From contig JAQUQD010000003.1 in the NCBI GenBank assembly GCA_028716265.1, positions 6,191-70,190 on the forward strand: a stretch of DNA of 64,000 nt. Direction: 5' to 3'. Below are positions 2,880-53,539 of this stretch, piece after piece; the stretch's first letter is position 1, and each line of letters begins with the position of its first letter. Under the pieces are notes generated by a model that saw only the letters and a program-made list of their open reading frames with translations, was not told where the DNA came from and searched no databases. This DNA comes from Bacteroidales bacterium. Lineage in GTDB: Bacteria > Bacteroidota > Bacteroidia > Bacteroidales > JAGONC01. The position numbers and the translations under genes were made by a program.

Positions 2880-2936
2880 GAGGAGAAAGGAAAGAGATTC
2901 TGGTTACTTTATTTCTCATCTCTCCTCTCTCCTCTC
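2878..2936. terminator. imperfect hairpin between convergent genes, built from inverted heptamer tracts (GARAGGA)x3 / (TCTCCTC)x3
   Basis: gagaggagaaaggaaagaga (2878-2897) pairs with tctcatctctcctctctcctctc (2914-2936): 9 bp, mismatch, 4 bp, mismatch, 3 bp. It overlaps both stop codons (2877-2879 and 2935-2937). Confidence 0.5.
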
Positions 2937-4512
2937 AAAACGGAAACTCCTCCTTGTAATCAATCTCTTCTTCTTCCTTAGTTTCATCGGGCAGCATGGC
3001 TGTCAGGTGGATCGGATTGGCGTCTACCACGATGGCCTTGGGATCGGTCGGGCAGGCATATTCACAGGCCCCGCAACCGATGCAGATATCCGGCGTTACC
3101 TCGGGAATTGTCAGTCCGCTGATGTACGGTACCATCTGGACCGCTTTAGTGGGACAATGCTCCGAACAGGCTCCGCATGCCGTGTTTTTCGTATGGACAA
3201 TACATTCCCGCCTGATGAAGCGAGCCTTGCCCAGCTGAACCTGCTTTTTCTCGTCAACGGTCAGGGACAGCAGTGCTGAGGTAGGACAGACTTCCGTGCA
3301 AACCACACAGTCATAGTTGCAGAAGCTGACCCTATAATCCATCACAGGCTGGAAGAGACCTTCCCAGCCGTAAGCAGCCAGCCGAGGCTGCAGGACCTGT
3401 GTAGGACAGGCGCTGACACATAAAAAGCAGCCGGTGCACGCCCGGGTGAAATGGTGATGACTGACCGAACCCGGAGGGGAAACGGGCAGTACATCATGCC
3501 CTCCACCTTGGAGTCGCTTTCCTCTGTCCTGCCCTCCCTGCCTATGCCGGTGCTGGCCACTGACAGAGACCAGCGATCCCAGGAGCAGAGCCATGGTCAG
3601 CAAGAAATTCCTCTTGGAAAGATCCGTTTTTCCCATTGAAACATCACCGGTAGTCTTTTTCAGCGATGGAGCATAATGGACCCCCCTGGCCGAACACACC
3701 GTCAGGCAATTGAAGCAGGCAATGCACCTGGAGTGATCCACCGTGCGGTTCTTGATGTCGATGCACCCTGCCTTGCAAGTAAACATGCAATCGCCGCACT
3801 GAGTGCACTGAACCTGATCCAGCCGGAAGCGGTAAAGGGAGAACTTCGAAAGATAACCCAGTATGGTTCCCACGGGGCAAATGGTATTGCAGTATTGCCT
3901 TCCACTGAGAAGGGGAAAGATGACCAGTATCCCCAGGAACAGCATAGCGATGATAAAAGGACCTGCTGTAAAGGAACGTATTTCGACCGGTTTGAACGAG
4001 TAATTGTTGAACGATTCAAAAATCAGCGCCAGAAGGTTGTTGACTGCAATGGCCACAGGCCGGAACAGTTCAACCGTGATCCGCCCGAAAAGGGAATACG
4101 GATCGAGCAGGTTCACCAGCGCCATGGAGCCGGCTGCGACAGAGATGACAATAACCGCAAGGATGGTCAGCCTGAGCATGTTCCTGGTTTTCAGGTGACG
4201 GAACCTCCTCTTTTTCCGGATCTTCCTGTGGATAAAGATCACCACGTCCTGAAAGATCCCTGCAGGACAGAGGACGGAGCAATAGACCCTTCCAAAAAGC
4301 AGGGTAAGGACGATCACGATGAGAAATCCGAGGGAAGTGATTCTCAGCAGGTGGATGAATTCAATCAGGGAGGGAGTGAATTGAATGAAGGTCATCCTGT
4401 GATCAACATGCTGAGGAATCAGGCCAGTAAAATCCAGGAATATAAAGAGTGTAAAAACAAAAAAAACGATGGCCAGAACCTTACGGATATTTTTCAGCCA
4501 GGCCTGTTTCAT
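2935..4512 (-). CDS. membrane polyferredoxin; N-terminal NapH-like part fused to C-terminal NapG-like 4Fe-4S part
   Basis: 525 aa. Several TM helices carry RVYCSVLCPAG and QYCNTICPVG (NapH-type CxxxCP). CxxCxxC...CP clusters follow, then an internal SKRNFLLTMALLLGSLVSV segment, then PPGSVSHHHFTRACTGCFLCVSACP plus three more ferredoxin motifs. Confidence 0.75.
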   Translation of the reverse strand: MKQAWLKNIRKVLAIVFFVFTLFIFLDFTGLIPQHVDHRMTFIQFTPSLIEFIHLLRITSLGFLIVIVLTLLFGRVYCSVLCPAGIFQDVVIFIHRKIRKKRRFRHLKTRNMLRLTILAVIVISVAAGSMALVNLLDPYSLFGRITVELFRPVAIAVNNLLALIFESFNNYSFKPVEIRSFTAGPFIIAMLFLGILVIFPLLSGRQYCNTICPVGTILGYLSKFSLYRFRLDQVQCTQCGDCMFTCKAGCIDIKNRTVDHSRCIACFNCLTVCSARGVHYAPSLKKTTGDVSMGKTDLSKRNFLLTMALLLGSLVSVSGQHRHRQGGQDRGKRLQGGGHDVLPVSPPGSVSHHHFTRACTGCFLCVSACPTQVLQPRLAAYGWEGLFQPVMDYRVSFCNYDCVVCTEVCPTSALLSLTVDEKKQVQLGKARFIRRECIVHTKNTACGACSEHCPTKAVQMVPYISGLTIPEVTPDICIGCGACEYACPTDPKAIVVDANPIHLTAMLPDETKEEEEIDYKEEFPF

Positions 4513-6894: not shown

Positions 6895-7079
6895 TAACGT
6901 ACTTTAATCCGTTTTTTATCAAAAGGTAATACGCATATCCCCAACTATTTTTCAATATTATTCAACATGTGTTCGTCAACGTCACTGAGGAGGTGGGATA
7001 TTCTGATGCAAAGATATAAAAACCGCGATAACAATTATAATAGGTATGAATTTGCTGACGGGTCTTGCTTCATAACAAG

Positions 7080-7087
7080 TATCTTTG
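7080..7087 (+). promoter_or_regulatory. candidate -7 box TATCTTTG upstream of mutS2
   Basis: Exact TAnnTTTG, 18 nt before GTG 7105. It lies inside the N-terminal extension proposed by the ORF track, which argues for the shorter gene. Confidence 0.45.
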
Positions 7088-7104
7088 CACTCAAATCGTT
7101 TAAG

Positions 7105-9594
7105 GTGTTCTATCCTATTGATTTTGAGACGAAAATTGGGTTTGACAGGGTCAGGGAGCTGATCCGCGACCATTGCCTGAGCCATTTGGGGGCACGGCAT
7201 GTTGACCAGATGCATTTTACCGGGGACTATGACCACGTCATCCGCTGGACGCAGCAGGTGTGGGAATTCAAGACCATCCTGTCGGGCGGGCTGACGTTCC
7301 CGAATGCGAATTATTTCGACATGACGGAGGAGATCGGTCGTTTGAGGACAGTGGGAACCTTTATCGAACCGGAGGCCTTGTTCGATATGAGGTCTTCGTT
7401 GTTTACCATCACCGAATGCCTTCGGTTCCTCGGGGGAAAAAACGGGGAACGCTTTCCGGCCCTCTCCGATAGCGCACAGGGCATCCGTGTGGATACGTCG
7501 CTGTTGGAGCAGATCGATGGGATCATCGACGAAAAGGGCACTCTGCGTGACACGGCTTCACCTGTCCTGAAAAAGATCAGAACGGACCTGGTCGCACGGC
7601 AGCACCAGATCGACAGGAAGATACAGGTCACCCTGCAGAAAGCCAAGAAAGAAGGGTGGATCAGCGAAGACACGTCCGTTACCATCCGGAGCGGCCGGGC
7701 GGTCATACCGGTTCCCGTCACCCACAAACGAAAGGTCCATGGCTTCATCCATGATGAATCGTCTTCCGGCCAGACAGTCTTCATTGAGCCCACTGAGATC
7801 TTTGATATCAACAACGAGATCAGGGAACTGGAGCATGCCGAGCGGCGGGAGATCATCCGCATTCTGACGATGTTCACCGACAGGCTCCGACCCCATCTGG
7901 ATTCCCTGGAACAGGCTTATGAATTTCTCGGACTGATCGATTTCATCCGTGCAAAGGCCCTTCTTGCACTGCAGATCAAAGGGGAGAAACCTTCTGTCAG
8001 GCCCTATCCCCTGATCCGATGGATCCACGCCATCCATCCCTTGCTCTACCTGGCTCATCAGAAGCAAAACAGAAGCGTTGTCCCTCTGTCTCTCGAGCTG
8101 GATGAAGAGCACCGTATCCTGATCATATCCGGACCGAATGCAGGTGGCAAATCGATCTGCCTGAAGACAGCGGGGCTTTTGCAGTATATGCTCCAGTGCG
8201 GACTGTTGGTGCCTCTTTCGGAATATTCTGAAATGGGAATATTTCAGCACCTGTTCATCGATATCGGTGACGAACAGTCCATCGATAATGATCTCAGCAC
8301 GTACAGTTCTCATCTTTTAAACATTAAATACATTGTCAGCCATGCAGATAAGCATACCCTCTTCCTGATCGATGAGTTCGGTTCGGGTACGGAGCCCCAG
8401 CTGGGGGGTGCCATTGCTGAAGCCACCCTGGAAGTGCTGGACAGCATGGGGGTTTATGGGATCGTTACGACACACTATTCCAACCTGAAACTCCTGGCAG
8501 GCAGGCTACCGGGAATCATCAACGGAGCGATGCTGTTCGACCAGCAGCTCATGCAGCCCCTGTACCGCCTGAAGATCGGCAATCCCGGCAGTTCATACGC
8601 CTTTGAGATCGCCAGAAAGATCGGATTCCCTGACAGGATACTGGAAAGTGCCGCAACAAAGACGGGCAAGACACAGCTTGACTTTGACCAGCAGCTGCAA
8701 CAGCTTGAGTTGGAGAAGGAAGTGGTCAGCAAAAAGCAGACTGAGTTCAGGGTAGCCGATGAGTTTCTGGCGGAGATGATCGGGAAATATCAGAAGATGA
8801 ACGATGAGCTGGAGAGGAGTAGGGTATCAATTCTGGCCGAGGCCAAAGAAAAAGCCCGCAGGATCCTGGATGACTCCAACCGCATTATTGAACAGACCAT
8901 CCGTGAGATCAAGCAGCAGCAGGCGGAAAAGGAGGCGACCCGGGAGGCGAGGAGGAAGATGGAGGTGTTCAGGGAAGAGTTGGAGGCGGGGGACGGAGGC
9001 AGTCAGCAGTCGGCAGGCGGCTGTCAGCGGTCAGAAGTCGGCAGTCAGCAGTCGGCAGGCGGTGGGCGGCGGGCGGCGGGAAGCGGGAAGCGGGTGGCGG
9101 AAGAGGAATGGCAAATGGCGGAGGGAAAGCTTAAGGCAGGGGACACCGTTCGGATCAGGGGGCAACAAACTCCGGGCGAGGTGCTCGAGGTAAAGGGAAA
9201 GGAAGCATTGATCGCTTTTGGCGCAATGAAGGTCAAGGTGGCCACCGACAGGCTTGAAACCCTGGGAAAACGGCTGGAAGAACTGATCGGGCTGAGGCCT
9301 GTCAGGTCATTTCAATCGGTGACCAGCGAGATCCATTCGCGGATGGCCAATTTCAGGCTGACGATTGATGTCAGGGGCAAACGGGCCGAGGAAGCGCTGG
9401 GTGAGGTCAGGAAATATCTCGATGAGGCGATCCTGTTGAACGTTGCCCAGGTGACGATCATTCATGGTAAAGGGGATGGCATCCTGTTCAGGGTGATCCG
9501 CGACCTTCTGAAAGAGATTCCAGAGGTGAAGCATTTTGAAGATGAGAAGATTGAGCGCGGGGGGCACGGTGTCACGGTGGTGACCTTCCGTTAG
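7105..9594 (+). CDS. mutS2: endonuclease MutS2 (MutS domain V ATPase, coiled coil, C-terminal Smr)
   Basis: (M)FYPIDFETKIGFDRVRELIRDHC N-terminus, Walker A ISGPNAGGKS, LIDEFGSGTEP, and a C-terminal Smr domain (LTIDVRGKRAEEAL...VTIIHGKGDGILF). The GTG 7105 start is chosen from the family N-terminus and the -7 box. The ORF-track start 6967 is probably too long. Confidence 0.9.
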   Translation: MFYPIDFETKIGFDRVRELIRDHCLSHLGARHVDQMHFTGDYDHVIRWTQQVWEFKTILSGGLTFPNANYFDMTEEIGRLRTVGTFIEPEALFDMRSSLFTITECLRFLGGKNGERFPALSDSAQGIRVDTSLLEQIDGIIDEKGTLRDTASPVLKKIRTDLVARQHQIDRKIQVTLQKAKKEGWISEDTSVTIRSGRAVIPVPVTHKRKVHGFIHDESSSGQTVFIEPTEIFDINNEIRELEHAERREIIRILTMFTDRLRPHLDSLEQAYEFLGLIDFIRAKALLALQIKGEKPSVRPYPLIRWIHAIHPLLYLAHQKQNRSVVPLSLELDEEHRILIISGPNAGGKSICLKTAGLLQYMLQCGLLVPLSEYSEMGIFQHLFIDIGDEQSIDNDLSTYSSHLLNIKYIVSHADKHTLFLIDEFGSGTEPQLGGAIAEATLEVLDSMGVYGIVTTHYSNLKLLAGRLPGIINGAMLFDQQLMQPLYRLKIGNPGSSYAFEIARKIGFPDRILESAATKTGKTQLDFDQQLQQLELEKEVVSKKQTEFRVADEFLAEMIGKYQKMNDELERSRVSILAEAKEKARRILDDSNRIIEQTIREIKQQQAEKEATREARRKMEVFREELEAGDGGSQQSAGGCQRSEVGSQQSAGGGRRAAGSGKRVAEEEWQMAEGKLKAGDTVRIRGQQTPGEVLEVKGKEALIAFGAMKVKVATDRLETLGKRLEELIGLRPVRSFQSVTSEIHSRMANFRLTIDVRGKRAEEALGEVRKYLDEAILLNVAQVTIIHGKGDGILFRVIRDLLKEIPEVKHFEDEKIERGGHGVTVVTFR
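8979..9125 (+). repeat. in-frame heptanucleotide-period tract (CAGTCRG-like, about 18-21 units) inside mutS2
   Basis: Units are cagtcag cagtcgg caggcgg ctgtcag cggtcag aagtcgg cagtcag cagtcgg caggcgg tgggcgg cgggcgg cgggaag cgggaag cgggtgg ... caaatgg cggaggg. The 21-mer cagtcagcagtcggcaggcgg occurs twice (9000-9020 and 9042-9062). The tract encodes GSQQSAG GCQRSEV GSQQSAG GGRRAAG SGKRVAE EEWQMAE. Confidence 0.8.
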
Positions 9595-14385: not shown

Positions 14386-14420
14386 GTGTGAAAAAGTGTA
14401 AAAAAGTGTAGAATCGTGTA
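14386..14420 (+). promoter_or_regulatory. MraZ operator: four direct GTGTR repeats at exact 10-bp spacing
   Basis: tttttGTGTGaaaaaGTGTAaaaaaGTGTAgaatcGTGTAgtttg, with repeat starts at 14386, 14396, 14406 and 14416. It lies 41 nt upstream of the mraZ ATG. Three units read AAAAGTGTA. Confidence 0.7.
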
Positions 14421-14460
14421 GTTTGTTGTCTATATTTACATCCAAAATCAGCCCATCACG

Positions 14461-14925
14461 ATGCCTTATCTTCTCGGTGAATATGAATGTCTTCTGGATT
14501 CCAAAGGCCGCATTTTGATGCCCGTTGCATTAAAGAGGCAGATACCGCCCGAGGCTCAGGACAAATTCATCATTTGCAGGGGCTTCGAGCGCTGCCTTAC
14601 GGTTTACCCGCTAAATGTATGGAATAAACTGACAGAAAACCTCAGCAGCCTGAATTTTTTTGAACCGGATGACCGGAATTTCGTCAGGTCATTCCAGCGG
14701 GGCGCCATCGAGATCCAGCTTGACAGTGCCAGCAGGCTTCTGTTGCCCCGGCAGCTGCTGAGCTATGCAGGCATTGAGAAGGACATCGTACTGTTTGCCT
14801 ACGCCGACCGGTTTGAGATCTGGGACAGGGAGACCTACAACAACCTCTTCCTGGACGAGGCGCCTGAAGCATTCGCTGAAAGGGCAAAAAAAGTAATGGG
14901 AAACAAAGACAAGCAGCAACAATGA
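14461..14925 (+). CDS. mraZ: division/cell wall cluster transcriptional regulator MraZ
   Basis: 154 aa. MPYLLGEYECLLDSKGRILMPVALKRQ and a second SpoVT/AbrB-like half (QLDSASRLLLPRQL). First gene of the dcw cluster. Confidence 0.9.
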   Translation: MPYLLGEYECLLDSKGRILMPVALKRQIPPEAQDKFIICRGFERCLTVYPLNVWNKLTENLSSLNFFEPDDRNFVRSFQRGAIEIQLDSASRLLLPRQLLSYAGIEKDIVLFAYADRFEIWDRETYNNLFLDEAPEAFAERAKKVMGNKDKQQQ

Positions 14926-22500: not shown

Positions 22501-22528
22501 GAGAGGAGAGAGGAGAAAGGAGAAATAT
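22501..22528 (+). repeat. purine heptamer tract (GARAGGA)x3-4 in the murD-ftsW spacer
   Basis: gagagga gagagga gaaagga gaaatat. It shares the 14-mer gagaggagaaagga with 2878-2891. Confidence 0.7.
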
Positions 22529-45476: not shown

Positions 45477-46211
45477 TTATTTAAGGTTGCGGATCCGCAC
45501 TTCACAGGAAGGCACATCCTTTAATAGGTTCAGCAATTGCGTGACATCCGAATCCCCATAATGGTAAGGATATAGTACGGTAGGATGAAACATGCGGACC
45601 GCATGGCTGACCATCTCCGGTGACATCGTATAGGGCAGATTCATGGGCAGAAAGGCGCAATAGATGTCTTTCAGACCGGCCATTTCGGGTATGTCCTCGG
45701 TATCACCGCCCACATAGATCTTTTTATCGCCAAAACGGATCACATACCCATTGCCGATACCCCTGGGATGAAAGGGCTCCCCGTTGCTTCGCTTATGAAC
45801 TATGTTATAGGCCGGAACGGCCTGAATGGTAATCCCCTGGACCGTCCTCGTATCTCCGTTTTTCATGACCATGCCCTTGGGTAGCTTTTCCAGGCATGAT
45901 TCGGAACAGACAGCAATCGTGCCTGGTTTTGTAATCTTATCAATAGCGGCCAGATCAAGGTGATCCCCGTGATGATGCGTGATCAGGATCAGGTCGGCAT
46001 CGGGAAGGAATCCGTAATCAGCGTATTGCTCCACTGGATCGACATGGATGACGATATCGTTCCAGGAAAACATCAGCGTGCCATGCCCGATGAAGGTCAT
46101 GGTCAATGTGCTGGAAGCTGTACGGATCGTGTCCGTTTGGAATGTTTTCTGGCTCATGACGAAGGCAATGTTTAGGAAAAAAGCGATAAGAAATAGACTT
46201 AATGATTTCAT
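45477..46211 (-). CDS. secreted MBL-fold metallo-hydrolase
   Basis: 244 aa. Signal peptide MKSLSLFLIAFFLNIAFVMSQ, and the HxHxDH motif in LITHHHGDHLD. Confidence 0.75.
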   Translation of the reverse strand: MKSLSLFLIAFFLNIAFVMSQKTFQTDTIRTASSTLTMTFIGHGTLMFSWNDIVIHVDPVEQYADYGFLPDADLILITHHHGDHLDLAAIDKITKPGTIAVCSESCLEKLPKGMVMKNGDTRTVQGITIQAVPAYNIVHKRSNGEPFHPRGIGNGYVIRFGDKKIYVGGDTEDIPEMAGLKDIYCAFLPMNLPYTMSPEMVSHAVRMFHPTVLYPYHYGDSDVTQLLNLLKDVPSCEVRIRNLK

Positions 46212-46239
46212 AATCAGTTTATTAATAATATTTAATTTT

Positions 46240-46274
46240 GATTTTTGATCTTTGCTTCTTGATTTTTGATCTTA
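46240..46274 (+). repeat. heptamer tract (GATYTTT-like)x5
   Basis: gattttt gatcttt gcttctt gattttt gatctta. Confidence 0.8.
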
Positions 46275-46406
46275 CGGTAGTGTCCTGCAGCCACAACGAT
46301 CATGGAGATATCCCTAATAAAAAGCCAGTCGGGAGGCACTCCGCACCAGCAGTTCAGCACCAACAGCCAACAGGATCAATCCGGCGAAAAAAGACAAATA
46401 GGTCAT
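46275..46406 (-). pseudogene. 5-prime remnant of a CaCA-family (Na+/Ca2+ exchanger, YrbG-like) gene
   Basis: ATG 46406 gives MTYLSFFAGLILLAVGAELLVRSASRLAFY* (30 codons), like the G..LL..GA..LV.GAS.LA start of CaCA antiporters. After the stop a shifted frame reads RDISMIVVAAGH and then runs into the heptamer tract (KIKNQEAKIKNQN*). Confidence 0.4.
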
Positions 46407-52241: not shown

Positions 52242-52646
52242 ATGAAATTACATCTTCTGACCGCTTCCTTTCTTCTGATATCCTGTACCTTAAATGCCCA
52301 GATCAAGGTATACAAAGGCAATTCCACTTCCTACTCCGACTGCCTGTACACCATTGCTGTAGATAAAATATACCGGGGTAATTCCACAAGTTATTCTGAC
52401 TGTTCGTGTACTGTTGAAGATAATAAAGTCTATCAGGGAAATTCCACCAGTTACTCGGATTGCCTATACACCATAAAGGGCGATAAGATCTACCAGGGGA
52501 ACTCAACGAGCTATTCGGATTGCCTGCTTACAATTAAAGAGCAAAAAATCTATCAGGGAAATTCCACCAGTTATTCTGACTGCCTGGCGACGGTGGATGG
52601 TACGTTAAAACACTTCCTGGTCGCGGTGCTGATCGGGCCTTATTAA
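52242..52646 (+). CDS. small secreted tandem-repeat protein (five 20-aa repeats)
   Basis: 134 aa. Signal peptide MKLHLLTASFLLISCTLNAQ, then 5 x K[IV]Y[KRQ]GNSTSYSDC[LS][YCLA]T[IV]xxx. Confidence 0.6.
   Translation: MKLHLLTASFLLISCTLNAQIKVYKGNSTSYSDCLYTIAVDKIYRGNSTSYSDCSCTVEDNKVYQGNSTSYSDCLYTIKGDKIYQGNSTSYSDCLLTIKEQKIYQGNSTSYSDCLATVDGTLKHFLVAVLIGPY
52305..52604 (+). repeat. five tandem 60-bp coding repeats
   Basis: Codons 22-121 of ORF 52242-52646. Each unit encodes KxYxGNSTSYSDCxxTxxxx. Confidence 0.85.
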
Positions 52647-52842
52647 AATGGACCTAATACCTTGAGCTGAATACATCAGGGCAGCCATCGCGGTTAAGAC
52701 CAGGGATGGCAACTGTACCCGCTACGACTTCATCAGGTTCCAGGAAAACTACACCGGTGGCAAGGTCCAGCCTCTCCATTACGATGGCGCCGGCGATAAG
52801 TCATGATGGATTGTGCCAATGTGAACAAATAACCGGATTTCT

Positions 52843-52884
52843 CAGTTGGCAGCTAGCAGTTAGCAGTTGGCAGTTAGCAGTTAC
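52843..52884 (+). repeat. heptamer tract (CAGTTRG)x6
   Basis: cagttgg cagctag cagttag cagttgg cagttag cagttac. Confidence 0.9.
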
Positions 52885-52925
52885 CAATCAAGAATTACCA
52901 AGTGCCAGGAGGCAATTCTTGATTG
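52885..52925. repeat. perfect 12-bp inverted repeat with 17-nt loop, 9 nt beyond the sigma gene stop
   Basis: caatcaagaatt (52885-52896) and aattcttgattg (52914-52925). No flanking U-run on either strand. Confidence 0.8.
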
Positions 52926-52933
52926 TCAACTGT

Positions 52934-53539
52934 TCACAGCGTCTCCTCCTGCCCCTTCAGGATATTGTACAGGAACTCCCTCGCCCTGAAAAGCTGTGCT
53001 TTTACCGTTCCCAGCGGCAGGTTCAGCTGAACGGCGATCTCCTCGTAGGAATATTCTTCAAAATAACGGAGCTGGATCAGCTGACGGTAATGCGGTTTGA
53101 GCTTCTCAACCACATCACGCATCAGCTTGATCTTCTGGCTCCTGATCAGATGCTCCTCCGGATCAGGGGTCTGGGAAGGGATGACGATCTCGGTGGCATC
53201 CTCATCGTCGGAGGGTTTGTCCAACGAAAGCATATCCATCTTCTTCCGGCGGATAAAGTCGATGCAATTATTGGTGGCGATCTTGAAGAGCCAGGTGCTG
53301 AAAGCGTAATCTGGCGTGTACTGGTGCAGGTTCCGAAACGCCTTGCCAAAAGCCTCGATGGTCAGATCATCGGCATCGTGCACGTCGTTGGTCATCTTCA
53401 GCAGCAAAAAATACAATGAATCCCGGTAATTGTTCATCAACTCCGCGTACGCCCGCTGGTCACCCGTTTTGATGGCCTGCTGCACAAGATGGTAATCACG
53501 TAATGCCTTTTCTGTCAGATGTGAGGTCAACTCTTCCAT
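52934..53539 (-). CDS. sigma-70 family (ECF-type) RNA polymerase sigma factor
   Basis: 201 aa. DADDLTIEAFGKAFRNL, FSTWLFKIATNNCIDFIRRKK, and YSYEEIAVQLNLPLGTVKAQLFRAR (region 4 HTH). Confidence 0.8.
   Translation of the reverse strand: MEELTSHLTEKALRDYHLVQQAIKTGDQRAYAELMNNYRDSLYFLLLKMTNDVHDADDLTIEAFGKAFRNLHQYTPDYAFSTWLFKIATNNCIDFIRRKKMDMLSLDKPSDDEDATEIVIPSQTPDPEEHLIRSQKIKLMRDVVEKLKPHYRQLIQLRYFEEYSYEEIAVQLNLPLGTVKAQLFRAREFLYNILKGQEETL

Follow-up and report, generated by a model that had tools for sequence, protein, structure and literature searches.

Heptanucleotide tandem arrays at gene 3' ends in a Bacteroidales genome and their probable origin by slippage

Short tandem arrays with a strict 7-nt period and different units are found at several places in a 64,000-nt stretch of Bacteroidales DNA (this whole stretch is called the window), and the array located at 52843-52884, termed the index array, raises the question of whether they derive from a common generating process, from a mobile repeat or from elements kept by selection at gene ends. 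The window belongs to a metagenome-assembled genome (MAG) of 3.09 Mb, 166 contigs and 49% GC, which is the genome studied (G000).

Period-7 arrays in the window and in the whole genome

Five loci had been indicated by the first-pass annotation, and each of them carries a period-7 array according to TRF on the window and to direct reading. These arrays and their neighbouring features are the following (window coordinates):

52843-52884, unstranded: index array (CAGTTRG)x6 in the spacer between convergent genes (TRF and sequence)
52885-52925, minus strand: 15-bp stem-loop with no U-tract, between the sigma-factor stop codon and the index array (RNA fold)
52934-53539, minus strand: ECF sigma-70 gene (Pfam Sigma70_r2, r4_2, ECF), with the index array in its 3' flank
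46236-46274, unstranded: array (TTTTGAT/CTTTGAT)x5, AAARATC on the minus strand (TRF, 78% match)
46271-46406, minus strand: remnant of a ~1-kb multi-pass membrane-protein gene (G002 comparison and translation)
22501-22525, unstranded: array (GARAGGA)x3.3-3.6, 4 nt after the murD TAG and 36 nt before ftsW (TRF, Pfam)
2878-2896, unstranded: left arm of a facing pair, (GARAGGA)x2.7, overlapping the TGA of gene 1866-2879
2914-2936, unstranded: right arm of the facing pair, (TCTCCTC)x3.3, abutting the TGA of the convergent gene 2935-4512 (TRF)
8999-9058, plus strand: (GCAGTCA/CAGTCRG)x8.6, in frame in the MutS2 linker (TRF)
9053-9100, plus strand: (GGCGGGN; CGGCGGG)x6.9, in frame in MutS2 and abutting the 8999-9058 array (TRF, alignments)

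The index array (5.9 copies, 85% match in TRF) is composed of the units CAGTTGG, CAGCTAG, CAGTTAG, CAGTTGG, CAGTTAG and CAGTTAC, and it also shows a 21-nt higher-order period (95% match). It is located about 50 nt beyond the stop codon of the ECF sigma gene, with the stem-loop 52885-52925 (-33.5 kcal/mol, z -4.3) between them; this stem-loop received no call in the terminator scan. A strain difference in the stem changes G.U to G-C, a pair that is valid solely in the minus-strand RNA, which is that of the sigma mRNA. The array at 46236 precedes the minus-strand gene 45477-46211, with 25 nt between it and the gene start, and forms the 3' end of the membrane-protein remnant, which keeps the N-terminal ~30 codons and the C-terminal end of a protein that by eye looks like a cation/Ca2+-exchanger. 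This remnant contains an internal deletion; the gene is intact in the relative G002, and unrelated sequence is found instead in the sister species G001.

The RNA of the array at 22501 is unstructured (z +1.3), and the facing pair 2878-2936 forms a hairpin of about 20 bp (z -3.2 and -5.6 for the plus and minus strands, respectively). The array described inside mutS2 (gene 6967-9594) is indeed there, although what had been counted as one tract of 18 or more units corresponds to two abutting arrays with about 15 units. The earlier statement that intergenic copies adjoin gene 3' ends or gene remnants is true for the four intergenic loci of the window. No Rfam family was matched within the window.

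The whole genome has been analyzed with TRF, and 414 non-redundant period-7 loci were found at a score of at least 30, versus 82 of period 6 and 170 of period 8. At a score of at least 50 period 7 also dominated its neighbours, with 141 loci compared to 6 of period 6, 48 of period 8 and 3 of period 9. Three order-5 Markov simulations of the genome gave 49-65 period-7 rows (about 58), and the arrays are thus far beyond what simulated sequence contains. Tandem arrays of 5-11-nt units that exceed in length and number what composition would give, with one period dominating, are characteristic of the LSSR class. The scan of neighbouring periods and the comparison with chance, both proposed in the first-pass annotation as checks of its claim, have therefore turned out in its favour. 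Periods 14 and 21 were likewise raised, and the period-8 excess was real and smaller. As a separate observation, loci of period 8 (48) and period 10 (22) were above expectation at a score of at least 50 and were mostly intergenic.

Intergenic DNA of the genome displayed autocorrelation peaks at lags 7, 14 and 21 that were gone once the called arrays had been masked, so that the period-7 signal consists of discrete arrays, and a diffuse lag-7 signal across all the intergenic DNA has been ruled out.

Placement, units and coding context of the arrays

Genes were predicted with a dicodon-scored caller (2429 genes, 91% coding). Among the 230 arrays with a score of at least 40, 162 were intergenic, 25 straddled a gene end and 43 were classified as genic, a number probably inflated at 5' ends by the longest-ORF start rule of the caller. 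About 70% of the arrays are therefore concentrated in the intergenic 9% of the genome, which is the non-coding over-representation expected for LSSRs. The genic arrays were mostly found in the first or last 10% of the ORF, and about 15 of the 230 were truly internal. Phase-variation contingency loci (simple repeats in the 5' coding region or the promoter) were discarded on the basis of this small number of internal arrays, those examined lying in linkers and changing in frame by 21 nt.

The number of arrays per kb of spacer was highest between convergent genes (about 1.0), followed by tandem (0.67) and divergent genes (0.46). Between co-oriented genes the arrays were at a median of 8.5 nt from the stop upstream and of 48 nt from the following start, the stop being nearer than the start for 67 of 98 arrays (p=0.0004), and within 30 nt of the arrays with a score of at least 30 there were 181 gene 3' ends versus 78 5' ends. 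One quarter of the arrays begin at or inside a stop codon, and the TAG share of stops was 38% in genes abutting arrays versus 18% genome-wide (p=2.5e-5), which indicates that the arrays or their seeds often supply the stop. The arrays of the genome showed no G/C strand bias relative to transcription (46 vs 47), and no orientation bias at the RNA level was found.

The units had been considered unrelated in the first-pass annotation, a view that did not hold. The 230 arrays use 66 of the 1172 possible canonical heptamers, with the top 10 motifs accounting for 50% of the arrays and the top units present at 18-44 loci each, and 58 of the motifs form one single-substitution network, compared to a mean of 14.6 in random motif sets. 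Several families of 7-nt units, in tandem and at many dispersed loci, are also what characterizes STRRs. Many arrays are compound, with a stepwise grading of one motif into the next, and unit divergence inside the arrays climbs with separation from 1.68 to 3.12 mismatches, as predicted by local duplication followed by point mutation. Array counts drop steadily with more copies, with no peak at four, and the GGCGGGA subclass (9 arrays, score of at least 40) is the sole one with G-tracts.

When adjacent arrays have similar units, the pairs are inverted in 23 cases and direct in 3. The inverted pairs have a median hairpin MFE of -40 kcal/mol and are enriched between convergent genes. No structure was predicted for lone arrays by RNA folding (z +1.3 and -0.9). 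The terminator scan gave no call coinciding with any array, and the hairpins carry no U-tracts; these two results, together with the unstructured lone arrays, led to the rejection of intrinsic terminators (GC-rich hairpin plus U-tract). A symmetrical co-expansion of the hairpin arms was suggested by the facing pair, with 3+3 units in the window versus 5.6+5.6 in G001, and was also rejected because arm lengths are uncorrelated genome-wide (r=0.13). The literature on intrastrand triplexes (PMC4666352) was found not to be relevant to the units of these arrays.

The commonest heptamer class, AAATTCC, is really a composite module, about 55 nt long and dispersed in about 60 copies, with a conserved unit order (consensus AAATTCCAAATTCCAAGATCCAAATTCCAAACAAATTCCAANATCCAAATTCCAAA). 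Examples outside the window are the following:

C41:8216-8285: AAATTCC module
C18:37357-37501: AAATTCC module
C14:~46368: AAATTCC module

Copies of the module are often arranged as inverted pairs, and some begin on a TAA stop; of 57 cases, 39 have a gene of the same strand upstream (39 vs 18). In appearance it is closer to a MITE or REP than to a plain simple sequence repeat: a full-length consensus with defined ends and many copies is expected for such elements, and the copy number and unit order of the module agree with this in part, whereas the simple arrays show no conserved flanks.

Some arrays are part of genuine proteins. The MutS2 tract falls in a variable linker that precedes the Smr domain, and in protein alignments the distant homologues have no such tract. 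The mutS1 gene is placed in another contig:

G000, C92:3092-5876: mutS1 (loci L102-L107)

Ahead of the QLSF clamp-binding motif, the MutS1 linker of every family member holds its own heptamer array, different from the others. The reading frame is kept in five genomes and lost in one (G003, L104), and the outgroup MutS1 has a plain 24-residue linker. The MutS1 C-terminal domain of G003, out of frame after the array, is the exception to the in-frame rule and reflects either a real truncation or a consensus error. The largest array of the genome, (CAAGCTG)x15.6, follows directly the mutS1 stop codon. The MutS1 and MutS2 linker arrays and an array that in G002 is read as a C-terminal tail are in frame, and coding copies have therefore been filtered to frame-preserving states. 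The odd low-complexity peptides had been attributed to spurious ORFs; this applies to some of them, but the MutS2 and MutS1 tracts and the G002 tail are in genuine frames. Since the arrays make spurious ORFs, extend or truncate gene ends and put low-complexity segments into real proteins (MutS1, MutS2, C-terminal tails), heptamer arrays should be taken into account by annotators of such MAGs. Loss of mismatch repair was rejected as the cause of the arrays on the basis of MutS1, the component covered, which is present in 31 of 31 relatives, repeat-rich or not.

Length change and distribution among relatives

The dynamics of the arrays has been studied by comparison of independent assemblies. 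Over 20.3 kb at 99.5% identity between strains, the sole length difference was a 21-nt (3-unit, 7-codon) indel in the mutS2 array, 21 nt being missing at 8999-9058 with respect to the window. The index array was exactly 21 nt (3 units) shorter in two independent assemblies from other runs, with flanks about 97% identical, and the array at 22501 was unchanged in two near-identical strain assemblies. The copy-number variation across strains that the first-pass annotation had suggested looking for is thus present at the index array and the mutS2 tract, and copy number steps by whole units, as in LSSRs, between strains at these two loci and also between species.

The sister species G001 is collinear with the window at about 80% nucleotide identity. 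The array at 22501 has 4 units in the window versus about 2 in G001, the mutS2 array is degenerate in the window and a perfect (GTCAGCA)x6.1 in G001, and an (AAGGCAT)x3.6 array of G001 corresponds to about one unit at the orthologous site of the window. G001 has no counterpart of the 46236 array; the G002 ortholog is diverged, of similar length and read as the C-terminal tail KVKSKNAKIKE*. The ECF sigma gene is conserved across the family and the array in its 3' flank differs by genome:

G000: (CAGTTRG)x6
G001: (ACTGYTG)x3.5
G003: (CAATCGA)x6
G002: degenerate relics
G005: (CTCGCTY)x3
G007: nothing
G004: unrelated 26-nt repeat

The mutS1 3' flank carried an array in the six family members examined, with 3 to 15.6 copies.

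Other differences were noted in these comparisons. Two additional segments are found in G001, one of ~4.4 kb immediately before mutS2 (window 6952-7072; L001 5505-9997) and one of ~7.1 kb between the beta-flower and sigma-factor genes (window 52645-52920; syntenic block in contig C28 of G001), the rest of the 64-kb window being collinear at 75-84% identity. A small Bflower_3 (6-fold beta-flower) protein with 60-nt (20-residue) tandem repeats is encoded at window 52242-52646, and it has 134 aa in the window versus 154 aa (one more repeat) in two other strain assemblies (L109, L110).

The (CAGTYRR)x4 arrays were present in 8 of 8 family genomes (3 genera) and in 1 of 23 other sampled families of the order. 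The density of period-7 arrays (score of at least 40, unbiased samples of 64-200 kb) was as follows:

Own family (G000, G003, G004, G007): 7.4-23.4 per 100 kb
Three other families (f2, f5, f24): 0.7-1.5 per 100 kb
G025 (family f19): 24 per 100 kb
G016 (family f10): 7.8 per 100 kb

The two rich genomes from outside the family use vocabularies other than that of G000. Units of G025 (L075-L084) are ATTTACG, GTGACCA, GGTTGCC, CGGGTAT and AGAGACT, facing pairs included. As G025 is denser and has another vocabulary, the trait has several independent or anciently diverged instances in the order. At the level of the phylum, CAGTYRR arrays were found in 29 of 401 Bacteroidota species and 17 of 180 genera, from several classes.

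This lineage offers a comparative system, with a rich family, three sister families at background level and two rich ones with different units, and with near-identical strains at hand in which an array was the only length-variable DNA over the 20.3 kb compared. Phylogenetic profiling across the order could point to the replication or repair factor responsible. Why bacterial tandem repeats favour 7 nt is a question open for more than 30 years, with "no clear clue" according to the SPADE authors (10.1101/309039).

Origin of the arrays and comparison with known heptamer repeats

The arrays are probably heptanucleotide repeats of the STRR/LSSR class that slippage generates and that persist where selection tolerates them. 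The period-7 excess, the whole-unit changes and the divergence with separation agree with the first-pass proposal of one generating process instead of a single mobile repeat, the second part of which is valid for the simple arrays, the AAATTCC class being a dispersed module. In the mechanism considered, both the origin of the arrays and their changes in length, by whole units, take place at the DNA level, likely through replication slippage or unequal exchange between units, often of several units at once where variants recur. Point mutation would produce new unit variants, and their local amplification would give the compound arrays and the single-substitution vocabulary. Selection would set where arrays survive, namely the less constrained DNA past stop codons, where they often overlap or supply the stop, and also 3' spacers, C-terminal tails and disordered protein linkers (only as multiples of 3 units, 21 nt). 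A minority of the arrays, the inverted pairs, form strong hairpins, probably at transcript 3' ends. The 7-nt preference is a heritable property of the lineage, present in all sampled family members and in some, not all, other families of the order.

Several points go against this reading. Generic slippage explains neither the 7-nt preference nor the restricted vocabulary, and the same CAGTYRR units occur in Bacteroidota species of several classes. The sites keep arrays across genera while the motif changes, which is unexpected for neutral DNA in a 91%-coding genome, and both strain-level changes are of 3 units, including the intergenic one, which has no reading frame.

These features (the 7-nt preference, the restricted shared vocabulary and the persistent sites) are beyond the account given by slippage, and for this reason an unlikely alternative has been kept, in which the arrays are functional 3'-end elements under selection, either binding sites read in a 7-nt register or hairpins that terminate or stabilize transcripts. 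Arrays stay at orthologous 3' flanks across genera despite changes in motif and copy number, and their restricted vocabulary is common to distant Bacteroidota, in favour of function; yet sister species share neither sequence nor copy number. An RNA role would be consistent with the excess of inverted over direct pairs, with their strong hairpins and enrichment between convergent genes, with the z values of the facing pair 2878-2936 and with the stem substitution beside the index array that pairs validly in the sigma mRNA strand alone. On the other side, most arrays are unpaired, lone arrays are unstructured, U-tracts and terminator calls are absent from the arrays, the arm lengths of facing pairs are uncorrelated and there is no orientation bias with respect to transcription. 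Regulatory roles have been proposed for heptamer repeats in Beggiatoaceae and Nostoc (PMC4679880; 10.1101/2022.06.06.494920).

It is rather doubtful that the arrays are written or maintained by a dedicated, heritable mechanism working in a 7-nt register with preference for CAGT-type units and common to scattered Bacteroidota, cyanobacteria and Beggiatoaceae. If this were true, the arrays would be modular 3'-end elements supplying stop codons and hairpins, and those in the MutS1 linker could be a frameshift switch that disconnects the clamp-binding C-terminus (compare G003).

Even less probable for the arrays as a whole is that they derive, as copies or remains, from small MITE/REP-like elements, mobile or dispersed, that insert at gene ends. 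The limited vocabulary (half of the arrays with ten motifs) would fit such an origin, which is plausible for the AAATTCC module with its conserved unit order, inverted pairs and 39-to-18 orientation preference. For the simple arrays it is unlikely: conserved flanks, terminal inverted repeats and target duplications are all absent from them, they differ in length by whole internal units, they change motif gradually at orthologous sites and in stepwise gradients inside compound arrays, and in one case the array can be traced to a single proto-unit by comparison with the sister genome.

That the arrays are assembly or binning artefacts, as might be suspected from a 166-contig MAG and from some arrays of relatives located at contig ends, and which the first-pass annotation had regarded as fatal to its claim, has been effectively refuted by the identical arrays of an independent NCBI assembly and of Logan assemblies from other runs, in addition to the orthologous arrays of 8 family genomes, an array length below the typical read length and the lack of enrichment at contig ends in G000 (4 observed vs 3.7 expected).

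With slippage as the preferred origin, the lineage is a new example of a known repeat class, not a new class. The STRRs are the classic case of heptamer repeats, and these heptanucleotide sequences were reportedly described in heterocystous cyanobacteria by Mazel et al. in 1990. The STRR3 unit, which we take to be CAACAGT, is a rotation of CAGTCAA, the commonest simple unit of G000. Like the arrays of G000, STRRs are said to consist of several families with a strict 7-nt unit, spread over many loci that are mostly non-coding, with a variable number of copies and no function established so far. Unlike them, the arrays of G000 are hosted by a Bacteroidota MAG and not by a heterocystous cyanobacterium, many of them adjoin stop codons, part of them form hairpins as inverted pairs, and others are read in frame in the MutS1 and MutS2 linkers. 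The likeness to STRRs drawn in the first-pass annotation, in terms of a strict 7-nt period and a common process, is supported by the excess and by the unit-step changes. Its statement that such repeats had not been characterised in Bacteroidota is not correct, since heptamer repeats have been reported in five Bacteroidetes (MacGregor 2015, PMC4679880).

The TAACTGA direct repeats of that work, found in marine Beggiatoaceae, cyanobacteria and the five Bacteroidetes, are also intergenic heptamer repeats with a patchy distribution, and TAACTGA (rotated complement CAGTTAT) is one substitution away from the index unit CAGTTAG. In Beggiatoaceae there is one dominant unit with fixed orientation just upstream of starts, whereas G000 has many units with no orientation bias at 3' ends.

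Heptanucleotides were the most abundant class in most of the genomes rich in 5-11-nt repeats, according to the survey of Mrazek, Guo and Shah (2007) as summarized in PMC4679880, and the SPADE preprint ranks heptamers first in abundance among the intergenic periodic repeats of many prokaryotes (10.1101/309039). To the extent that these surveys are summarized in such sources, the dominance of heptanucleotides, the intergenic over-representation and the sporadic phylogeny are common to the LSSR/SPADE repeats and to G000, slippage having been proposed and function being unknown; the G000 lineage is outside the coverage described there, as are the strain-level unit steps and the turnover at orthologous sites documented here.

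The quadruplex-forming heptamers GGGNATC and GGGGA(C/T)T of Xanthomonas and Nostoc are biased towards stop codons and co-oriented ORFs (Rehm 2015, PMC4692102). The G000 arrays resemble them in their 7-nt period, their location between co-oriented ORFs and within about 50 bp of stops, their rarity in coding and divergent regions and their variable copies. The difference is that a G-tract per unit occurs in G000 only in GGCGGGA (9 arrays), so that most units cannot form a G4, and that the four-unit preference of the Rehm repeats is replaced by counts falling with copy number. With REP/BIME and MITE-like repeats the arrays have in common the gene 3' ends, the convergent spacers, the hairpin-forming inverted arrangements and, in the AAATTCC module, dispersal, but in the simple arrays there is neither a full-length consensus nor conserved termini, and their changes are steps of internal units.

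Another set of short spaced repeats was noticed in the window. Four GTGT(A/G) words with an exact spacing of 10 nt (GTGTGAAAAA GTGTAAAAAA GTGTAGAATC GTGTAG) are located at 14386-14425. The gene mraZ (14461-14925), which heads the dcw cluster, lies about 40 nt downstream of them, and the words are conserved in G001 (L001 17357-17381). MraZ binds spaced direct repeats, and these words are a candidate MraZ operator.
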